Shown here one piece after another: positions 6,001-9,000 of a stretch of DNA of 10,739 nt. Source of the stretch: a virus (taxonomy: Duplodnaviria > Heunggongvirae > Uroviricota > Caudoviricetes); the IMG/VR virus record IMGVR_UViG_2703719365_000002. One strand, 5' to 3'. Numbering within the stretch: the first letter of the stretch is position 1; each line of letters opens with the position of its first letter. The position numbers were made by a program.

Positions 6001-9000
6001 CGTGTCGTTGTCTCCGAAGTAAAACGGCTTGGCCTGATGCACAAACGCCCTGACATACGCTCTGAAACCGTCCACGTTTGGCGTTTTCAGTTGCGGGATA
6101 ATTTTCTTCAGGCGGCGTTTTCGTTTCTCGTTGACCGCAACAGCGTGTGGAAGTCTGTCACCGACTTCGGTGTTGTAGGCGTTCAGGAAGGATTCGTAGT
6201 CGATTCGTTCTGCCTTGCGACGTTCAGGTTTAACCTGCCCATCGCCATCCCCGTTAGGGGGTAAGGGGGTATTTGTATTTATTGTCTTTTGTATATTGTC
6301 TTTTGTGTTTAGCTGACTTGGCTTATACCCATTAGCCGACTTGGCTAATGTTTTATTAGCTGTTTTAGCTAATGTTAAGCTGTCCTGGCTAATCCACTGA
6401 GAAACCACCTTGTTCACTCCGATTTTCACGCCATCAGCAATGAGGAATTTACGCTCAATAAGCTGGCGCTTGGCAGCGCAAACATGAGTGTGATGAATAC
6501 CTGTCATGGCTGCTATCTGCGTGTTTGTGAGTCGATCCATCGGCTTATTGAATCCGTATGTCTTGCGCATGATAGCGAGCATCACCTTCAACTGCCGGAC
6601 GGTTAAATCAGCCATCAGCAGACTGTCGGTAATCTCGTTAGCAACGCGCATGAAACCATCTTCGGTATCTGCCACGCGATGCTCCACGACCTCCAGTTGA
6701 GGCCTGTAATCAGCTAACTTAACGACGCCCATGTTTCACTCCTGCTTTGGCTAGTCTGTAAACACCAACAAGGCGCTCTGCGAACGCCCTGTTATTTGCT
6801 GCGGCTACCACTAATCCCTCAGGTGAATCAGGGTGTCGAATCTCTTCTTTTTCCTGGTATTTCTTACGACGTTTTGTCATAATTACTCCTGTGGATTGAT
6901 CCAGTAATTCCCTCAGAATTGCATATCAATTTGCTTAAAATCCTCGGTGGCAGCCGGGGATTTTTTCTTTGTGATTTCATCAAGCGCATACTTAAAAGCC
7001 CTGCTAATCGGACTGATGTCTGATGCCATTCCGAAAGCACACAAGACCGAAGCAATAAACCGCCAGTCCGTTCTGCTTATCTTCGATTCATGACAGCCAA
7101 TCATCTTTGCCAGACCGCGCTGTGTAAGCGTTGACAGGTTGATGAGTAAATCTGTTTCTGCGCGATCAACGTCGCGCTGTGATAGTTTGCTGTAACTTGT
7201 TCGTTCCATTTCTTAAGATTTCCAATAGTGAATAGTTAGTTGAAAGGTATGCGTGGAAACGCATATGGCCTTAGTTGGTCAGATATCTTGGGACTCGCTT
7301 TTCAGCGACGTAGGACGAATGTCCGTTGTTACAAAGAGCGGCTCCGCTTATTAAGCGGCTTTGTGCTCCGGCGGGAACACGTCATCAAGACTTACTTTTG
7401 CGCCTAACTTGTTTAGACACGCAACAAGAGCACGGCATGTTTTAAGGTCTGGGAAGCGACGACCAGATTCCCAATGTCCGATAGCTCCCTGTGTGCATCC
7501 AACTGCCTTAGCAAGTGTTGTTTGAGAGATATTCAGTGACTCTCGATATTTTCGTAGGTTGCTCATATGCCCTCCATAGTAACCACGAATAAAAAATACA
7601 ATATGTACTTCTCAAATACAAGTAAAAATACACATTGTGCATGGATGGTTCCAGTACAGAGCGTAATAATAAGGACATGAAAATGAAATGGTATGAACTG
7701 GCTAGATCCAGAATGAAAGAGCTCGGCATAACTCAAGAGAAGTTAGCCGAAGAGCTAGGTATGACGCAGGGTGGAATTGGACACTGGTTGCGCGGATCTC
7801 GTCATCCATCTCTTAGTGATATTGGTGTGGTGTTTAAATACCTTGGTATTGATAACATATCATTCAACCACGACGGGACATTTTCACCTGTTGGCGAATA
7901 CTCATCGGCCCCAGTTAAAAAACAATATGAGTACCCTGTTTTTTCTCATGTTCAGGCTGGGATGTTCTCTCCAGAACTCAGAACCTTTACCAAAGGTGAT
8001 GCGGAGAGATTGGTAAGCACAACCAAAAAAGCCAGTGACTCTGCATTCTGGCTTGAGGTTGAAGGTAACTCAATGACCGCACCAACAGGTTCCAAACCTA
8101 GTTTTCCTGACGGGATGTTAATTCTGGTTGACCCTGAGCAAGCTGTTGAGCCCGGCGATTTCTGCATAGCCAGACTTGGTGGTGATGAATTTACCTTCAA
8201 GAAACTGATCAGGGATAGCGGTCAGGTGTTTCTACAACCACTAAACCCGCAATATCCAATGATCCCATGCAATGAGAGTTGTTCCGTTGTGGGGAAAGTT
8301 ATCGCCAGCCAATGGCCTGAAGAGACGTTTGGGTAAAGAGGATAGATGGAGTTTAATGGCCATGAGTATCAAGCGGTCAAAAAGAAGTTCATCTATTCAT
8401 TGAAAGCATAAGGCCATCTGAGTATATCCGTAATGATCTGGATATTGTCTATAACATCAATGACCGGACGATAGATATCGGTGAGCAGCGTCCTGTATGG
8501 CAGGGTGAGGCAGGTGAAAAAACGTCCTGCCATCAACAAGAATCAAGTGCATCCGCTCTCTGGACAGATGGAAAATTTATTGGATGCAAAAAGATATGAA
8601 ATAACACCTGTATAGCACGGAGCTTTCTCTGACCGATGCACTTGAAGTTGTTAGGGCTGACCCAGCCTGCTGTTTCTTTAGGTAAGAGAAAAGAGATTTA
8701 GGAGATGAAAGGTCGCAGAGGTGCGGCCTTTTTTATTGAGAGTGGATCTTGAACGGAAATTCTCAAGACTTGAGTCTTGCATGCAAATCAATTCCTGGAT
8801 AAACTCGATCTGAGTCAATAACTTAGAGAGAGAGCAAATGGCAAAGTCAAACGTTAGCGTGCAGGCATTCAAGGACTTCCTTGAAGAGCTTATGTCGCTG
8901 AACATAATGAAGGAGGCCACCGCTCGAAATTTAAAAAACTCATCCGCTCGCCTCTTAACGGTAGTCCAAGAAGAGGAAATGGGTGATGTTACTCAGCTTG

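Follow-up and report, generated by a model that had tools for sequence, protein, structure and literature searches.

The segment directly behind the cI repressor gene of this phage is very probably a dead copy of a DUF3024 gene, and the death of that gene explains the region, which needs no function of its own. The segment lies at positions 8346-8685 of a 10,739-nucleotide stretch of DNA, referred to throughout as the window, which its matches identify as the early/immunity region of a Shiga-toxin prophage with immunity of the VT2-Sakai/Sp5 type. An initial annotation of the window had offered three readings of the apparent gap behind cI: a decayed gene in the rexA position, a long structured 3′ UTR, or a small RNA derived from the 3′ UTR and co-transcribed with cI in lysogens. 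The first of these holds with respect to decay, as the remains are those of a frameshifted and nonsense-mutated DUF3024 gene. It does not hold with respect to kinship with rexA, to which the gene is analogous in position only.

The genes in this part of the window are arranged in the order cI, the region in question, an ECs1184-type ORF and N, with cro and cII on the strand opposite to cI. The principal features are listed in Table 1. The stop codon of cI is a TAA at 8334-8336. Positions 8337-8840 are 100% identical to 44 phage records, including VT2-Sakai, Nil2, phage 1717, phage 2851, the PA series and others. E. coli matches to the region with an identity of at least 99% number 234 records from 235 complete genomes, mostly O157:H7, and in the Sakai genome the region occupies 1256654-1257053 on the minus strand. 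Public annotations disagree among the records inspected; they either leave the region blank or present arbitrary fragments as ‘hypothetical protein’. The initial annotation was right to report no convincing ORF between the cI stop and the terminator: no intact one exists there, and there is none of 60 amino acids or more on either strand in 8337-8837.

Table 1. Positions of features in and around the region behind cI, numbered as in the window.
Feature	Position	Strand	Basis or description
cI repressor gene, LexA family	7677-8336	+	Translation; records annotate cI / LexA family protein
Remnant Shine-Dalgarno sequence AGAGGA (GGAGGA in intact homologues)	8338-8343	+	Alignment
Probable DUF3024 pseudogene (PF11225 / PADLOC PDC-S43)	8346-8685	+	Ancestral ATG 8346 to ancestral stop TAA 8683-8685
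Lesion 1, 1-bp deletion, A5 versus A6/A7 in intact homologues	8379-8383	+	Alignment
Hairpin TGGCAGG...CCTGCCA	8498-8532	+	Within what was coding sequence; arms read as codons W-Q-G and L-P-S
Lesion 2, 1-bp deletion in A-run, GAAACAAAC to GAAAAAAC, second frameshift	8517-8522	+	Alignment
Lesion 3, TGG to TAA at Trp87	8602-8604	+	Trp87 invariant in 13 intact homologues
Degenerate downstream copy of cI 3′-end repeat	8686-8709	+	Cassette edge
Intrinsic terminator	8707-8737	+	11-bp stem, 7-bp G+C-rich core GGUCGCA/UGCGGCC, loop GAGG, U6-A-UU
ECs1184-type ORF	8838-9359	+	
N	10016-10360	+	

The identity of the lost gene is given by more distant relatives. A blastn search in distant mode returned approximately 100 further phage records that match window positions 8338-8731 at 80-82% identity, and the records annotate the matched stretch as a ‘DUF3024 domain-containing protein’ right after cI. 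Intact genes of 113 codons are found in Min27-type Stx phages (pMIN27_25), SH2026Stx1 (H3H24_gp21) and Salmonella phage SE1 (SE1_gp24). They are cI-proximal, start a few tens of bases past the cI stop and share position and orientation with the window segment. The start context GGAGGATAGATG is common to all, as is a hairpin located 3′ of the gene. The window segment aligns with the intact gene from end to end with approximately 81% nucleotide and 80% amino-acid identity. In a four-way alignment the DNA sequences stay colinear from the Shine-Dalgarno sequence through the ATG to the stop codon, and the window displays exactly two gaps, each of 1 bp.

The homologue protein is spelled out by three frames of the window in turn: frame 0 up to the first deletion, frame +2 up to the second, then frame +1 as far as the ancestral stop. 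This reconstruction contains a single in-frame TAA. With the frame repaired, the translation matches PF11225 with 77.6 bits (cut-off 24.9) over profile positions 4-111 of 112. Against the PDC-S43 profile it scores 104.3 bits, compared to 137.6 bits for the intact Min27 protein. Pfam, PHROGs and PADLOC return only DUF3024, phrog_3467 and PDC-S43. The initial annotation had proposed alignment to related phages as a check and considered that an intact gene with a reconstructable frame would denote a simple pseudogene; such a gene is found at the same spot and its frame can be reconstructed. Judged on its sequence, and having no intact ORF of approximately 113 codons, the segment is a pseudogene of the DUF3024 family and not a functional member.

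The absence of an ORF is not a matter of chance since three identifiable lesions are present in a known gene. That the lesions recur in many independent assemblies speaks against sequencing artefacts. Relative to Min27, SH2026Stx1 and SE1 the window carries two frameshifts, a nonsense codon and seven changes at invariant residues. The first frameshift yields a 21-codon stub, from ATG 8346 to a TAA at 8409-8411, which the initial annotation had recorded together with the AGAGGA motif ahead of it. The stub comprises the first 13 ancestral codons and an out-of-frame tail.

The substitutions carry a record of the coding past. Of 63 differences between the window and Min27, 41 occur at reconstructed third codon positions, a codon-type pattern that points to a coding sequence once under selection, whose death was fairly recent. 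Values of dN/dS (Nei-Gojobori) are 0.09-0.19 when the window is compared with intact genes and 0.14-0.17 between intact genes, which suggests that most of the approximately 19% divergence built up under purifying selection on the protein. There are in addition apparent signs of relaxed constraint following gene death. Among 40 positions that are constant in 13 intact homologues, seven are broken in the window copy (A2E, Q41R, P56A, Y69C, R82Q, W87* and G113R), whereas a leave-one-out test of the intact homologues gives 0-2 broken positions in each.

No intact relative with greater than 82% identity was returned among 5.8 billion protein clusters. The closer matches, over the part matched, are truncated ORF fragments that represent variant copies of the same pseudogene with different indels; compared with the window copy, fragments P0021 and P0022 show additional changes of frame. 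One of the fragments derives from a metagenome contig, L097, which is a recombinant with the crossover inside the DUF3024 sequence. The 5′ part is of the 933W/SH2026 type, and thereafter the contig is identical to the window, including the ECs1184-type ORF, and shares the second frameshift, the TAA and the terminator.

The intrinsic terminator reported in the initial annotation is real and requires only a small correction of coordinates. Folding places the hairpin at 8707-8732 with the U-tract extending to 8737. The hairpin, AAAGGUCGCA-GAGG-UGCGGCCUUU, is followed by UUUAUU and has a folding energy of -15.9 kcal/mol (z = -3.5 versus shuffles). The minus-strand fold is weaker, at -9.4 kcal/mol, and has no U-run. 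A simple pattern scanner did not list this terminator; it was confirmed by folding. In strain 9234 an IS1203 element is inserted inside the hairpin near position 8713, and in strain 150 a 140-bp deletion (approximately 8690-8829) takes out the terminator and fuses the pseudogene to the next ORF. Another IS is located at approximately 8813 in strain 180-PT54. The disruptions of the terminator in natural strains are viable variants.

The stk gene of 933W-type phages lies downstream of DUF3024, and control by PRM has been reported for it in lysogens (PMC3430580). On that basis it is reasonable to infer that the region is co-transcribed with cI. Transcription would terminate at 8737. The course of events we propose is as follows. 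The ancestral DUF3024 gene would have been a small accessory gene, of the kind placed directly behind cI in many lambdoid/P22-like prophages. In the VT2-Sakai/Sp5 lineage the frame has been destroyed by a 1-bp deletion in each of two A-runs and by a TGG-to-TAA change, and all that is left is a stub of 21 codons that keeps its former Shine-Dalgarno sequence and start codon. Transcription from PRM (and PRE) most likely still runs through the dead sequence and makes it an untranslated tail of approximately 400 nt on the cI mRNA. This tail would end at the intrinsic terminator and need have no function.

Could the dead sequence have acquired a new role? It is very unlikely that the tail of approximately 400 nt, or a terminator-proximal fragment of it, has been exapted as a regulatory RNA in Stx2 lysogens. 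If it had, such an RNA could set the half-life of the cI mRNA and hence the induction threshold and toxin release, or alternatively could sponge a host sRNA. In one form of the idea the dead ORF would persist because, as a long structured 3′ UTR, it has the function of tuning cI mRNA stability or Rho-dependent termination. Positions 8337-8745 (409 nt) do fold better than shuffles, as a structured RNA also would, but the difference is moderate, weak and non-specific (z = -2.5). The stretch is also invariant in 235 genomes; such invariance is expected given the clonal ancestry and recent clonal spread of O157, though the population data are compatible with selection on the RNA too.

The long hairpin singled out in the initial annotation is present, with arms TGGCAGG at 8498-8504 and CCTGCCA at 8526-8532. 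However, because GGCAGG occurs twice, the minimum free energy fold favours a competing pairing over that of these arms. The covariation check that had been suggested reveals none across the homologues: 0 of 7 pairs are compensatory and the paired fraction does not exceed that of shuffles. The 3′ arm changes without compensation in four more diverged intact homologues. This test made use of four closer loci, L093-L095 and L013 (72% identity); a scan of contigs for DUF3024 gave mostly genes of 33-45% identity, from many phyla, that are too distant for the purpose. On these comparisons the hairpin is not a conserved RNA element. In the segment as a whole the substitutions follow a protein-coding rather than an RNA pattern, P0021 and P0022 carry their additional frame changes, L097 is recombined within the gene, and Salmonella phage Oslo does without the whole segment. 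A structured 3′ UTR under selection is, in our assessment, highly improbable. A long tail as such may well exist, probably as the passive result of decay.

The other form of the idea is an Hfq-binding sRNA, cleaved off the end of the cI transcript (approximately 8640-8737) and acting in trans in lysogens. To this we attach very little credence. The terminator hairpin is strong, has a U6 tail and is preceded by an A/G-rich stretch of the ARN type, AAGAGAAAAGAGAUUUAGGAGAUGAAA, and Stx prophages do yield sRNAs of this sort elsewhere, for example StxS and AsxR. Like StxS and AsxR/AgvB, which are prophage and 3′-end-derived Hfq sRNAs of EHEC, the window segment has a prophage location and a terminator hairpin with U-tail; unlike them it has no Rfam match, no peak in the Hfq-CRAC table and no conserved non-coding sequence. 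A search of the whole window with Rfam at the gathering threshold, and one of 8250-8900 at E ≤ 1, gave no match in the region. The plus strand has no promoter-like site inside the region, and no orphan Hfq peak is listed for Sakai 1256553-1257053 in the one table consulted (Hfq-CRAC Table S2, PMC4104026). The nearest Hfq peak in that table, EcOnc20, maps to approximately 9637-9762 of the window, in the N leader. Furthermore, the sequence upstream of the hairpin consists of decayed coding sequence and the cassette repeat, the region shows no conserved seed or structure that is independent of coding, and its substitutions are codon-like. In some strains the hairpin is interrupted by an IS or has been deleted. 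The small RNA of the initial annotation is not borne out by these searches.

The only nearby Rfam match, in the search of 8250-8900 at E ≤ 1, is a chance snoRNA with E = 0.69. Two known RNAs were also considered. AsxR, the EHEC anti-sRNA, was suspected first, but the paper describing it places AsxR 3′ of stx2B and not here, and the preprint on the Pas sRNA deals with other loci.

The two short ORFs noted in the initial annotation, of 21 amino acids (8346-8411) and 44 amino acids, are both present; the latter, a GTG-initiated frame, is corrected by one base to 8481-8615 including the stop. We consider it scarcely credible that either is a genuine small-protein gene. The 21-codon ORF retains its Shine-Dalgarno sequence and ATG and is probably translated, and in some records the 44-residue ORF, or one of 53 residues, is called a hypothetical protein. 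These annotations are, however, inconsistent across records, neither short ORF matches a PADLOC family, the shorter is the ancestral start with an out-of-frame tail and the longer is not in the ancestral frame. Recoding that keeps the gene expressed can practically be discounted: both deletions sit in A-runs, sites of the A AAG type are slippery in E. coli, and a -1 slip (GUC AAA AAG; GAA AAA ACG) would on paper restore the ancestral residues at the first site and all but one residue at the second, but two independent low-efficiency slips would be required, the TAA at invariant Trp87 would still remove the last 27 residues, seven invariant residues are altered besides the frameshifts, and no stimulatory structure was identified.

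An inactivated DUF3024 gene, then, is the reading we prefer, and the flanking sequences suggest how the gene came to lie here. A repeat stands on either side of the DUF3024 cassette, and its upstream copy is formed by the last 19 bases of cI, TGAAGAGACGTTTGGGTAA (8318-8336). Right after the DUF3024 stop in Min27 and SH2026Stx1, 371 bp downstream, the 15-19 bases that end cI (TGAAGAGACGTTTGGGTGA) appear a second time. This downstream copy is exact in Min27 (15/15, TGAAGAGACGTTTGG) and matches at 17 of 19 positions in SH2026Stx1. Salmonella phage Oslo provides the counterpart with no DUF3024 gene: a few tens of bases past its cI comes the same terminator, and after that an ECs1184 homologue. The Oslo terminator is identical to that of the window in stem and U-tract and differs in the loop. 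Taken together, the repeats and the layout in Oslo make DUF3024 look like a cassette that can be inserted between cI and the terminator behind it. The hairpin marks a mosaic junction: up to it the window is homologous to the DUF3024 phages, and from it onwards to Oslo. By these structural signs the intact gene is a moron-like cassette, with its own ribosome-binding site, flanking cI repeats and a conserved hairpin after it. Among complete E. coli genomes, 227 have an intact cassette and 235 a dead one.

The arrangement can be compared with better known operons. In the cI-rexA-rexB operon of lambda, accessory genes behind cI are expressed in lysogens and have their own terminator. The window resembles lambda in that cargo, presumably read from PRM, is placed behind the repressor gene and ahead of a terminator, on the upstream side of PL and N; the difference is that in the window the cargo is dead. 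There is no sequence relationship to rexA or rexB, since Pfam, PHROGs and PADLOC give no homology to RexA or RexB, and the similarity is positional only. The PRM operon of 933W-type phages (cI, DUF3024, RuvC-like, stk) has the same DUF3024 cassette behind cI, but in the window the operon stops at a full U-tract terminator after the dead gene, whereas in Min27 further genes (RuvC-like, stk) and 933W-like neighbours are annotated. The next gene in the window, the ECs1184 homologue, belongs to a different module from that of 933W, one held in common with phage Oslo. In a Yersinia prophage an intact gene is located 3′ of the repressor and 5′ of an AAA-ATPase and a DNA methylase, a layout that would fit a slot for accessory genes expressed in lysogens.

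The ancestral gene may likewise be inferred to have been an accessory gene expressed in lysogens, possibly for defence. PDC-S43 is a candidate single-gene anti-phage system, a computational candidate only. A literature search on DUF3024, PDC-S43 and ECs1185 gave nothing on this segment and no papers on DUF3024. The AlphaFold model of the intact protein (pLDDT 85) consists of a helix, five strands and a helix; no significant structural match to it was found in the PDB (best E = 0.2), and a sequence search of the PDB gave only hits with E ≥ 0.07.

The decayed stretch behind cI is an ordinary pseudogene, so far unannotated as such in the records inspected, and the practical value of the analysis is a correction: the stretch should be marked as a DUF3024 pseudogene. 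The locus offers a small, clean example of the gain, loss and recombination of cargo in the slot behind cI of Stx phages, and contig L097 indicates that immunity modules recombine across the DUF3024 sequence, which provides them with a stretch of homology. If DUF3024/PDC-S43 is a defence gene, then Stx2 phages of the Sakai type would be natural loss-of-function variants.

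The short 'hypothetical proteins' annotated inside the DUF3024 pseudogene that follows cI differ among public annotations, with a 53-residue product called by PGAP in some RefSeq genomes and one of 44 residues in PA phages. None of the public annotations inspected labels the stretch as a DUF3024 pseudogene. The coordinates of these calls and of the other features considered are listed in the table.

Features in and around the immunity region of the window
Feature	Window position	Strand	Remarks
Antirepressor gene	343-1077	minus	repeat around 830-890
C4 antisense RNA	1130-1213	minus	Rfam, 66.7 bits, above gathering score
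isrK	1239-1315	minus	Rfam, 74.7 bits, above gathering score
DnaB-like replicative helicase gene, split	4539-5914	minus	lesion at about 5465
DnaB_C ORF	4539-5363	minus	
DnaB N-terminal domain ORF	5429-5914	minus	
53-aa PGAP call	8438-8599		comparison locus L006, 2102-2263
44-aa call	8481-8615		comparison locus L002, 1645-1779
Spacer, terminator to ECs1184-type ORF	8745-8837	+	
ECs1184/ORF23 homolog	8838-9359	+	173 aa; phrog_2602
EcOnc20	about 9637-9762	+	PL-N leader; Sakai 1255628-1255753 (minus), placed by offset from the cI end, presuming Sakai/window colinearity over the stretch

The spacer beyond the terminator shares about 89% identity with Salmonella phage Oslo and includes an inverted repeat with perfectly matched 6-bp arms (CAAGAC-TTGA-GTCTTG), adjoining a possible promoter (TTGCAT-17-TAAACT). 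It is disrupted in two O157 strains, by an IS insertion in one and by deletion of the whole spacer in the other. The ECs1184/ORF23 homolog that follows occupies a rex-like slot, with the cI terminator on one side and PL on the other, and the protein gave no match in Pfam or PADLOC. In a systematic deletion study of Sp5 the gene could not be deleted, and its authors suggested that stable lysogeny requires it (PMC5155283); according to later work, the product does not bind RNA strongly (PMC7618764). Further along, EcOnc20, published as an orphan Hfq-binding peak of strain Sakai (PMC4104026, Table S2), maps to the N leader on the colinearity assumption given in the table.

Comparison with phage Stx2a_WGPS4 reveals two further differences. 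A 30-bp in-frame tandem repeat in the antirepressor gene is present in two copies in the window as opposed to three in that phage, the proteins being 244 and 254 residues long, respectively; the isrK and C4 antisense RNA matches (1130-1315, minus) lie directly upstream of this gene. A 1-nt deletion breaks the DnaB-like helicase gene into two frames, and the exact split allele occurs in only four of the 660 E. coli genomes carrying the stretch; the window's own prophage copy may therefore be replication-defective.

The metagenome contig L097 has a recombinant immunity region, with the crossover inside DUF3024 sequence at about window position 8420-8440. The end of cI and the 5′ part of DUF3024 are of the 933W/SH2026 type, the 3′ part is of the window type. 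Because the crossover joined these two parts the first frameshift is absent, 'repaired' by recombination, whilst the second frameshift and the TAA codon are kept. L097 thus shows the dead DUF3024 gene acting as a patch of homology over which modules are exchanged.
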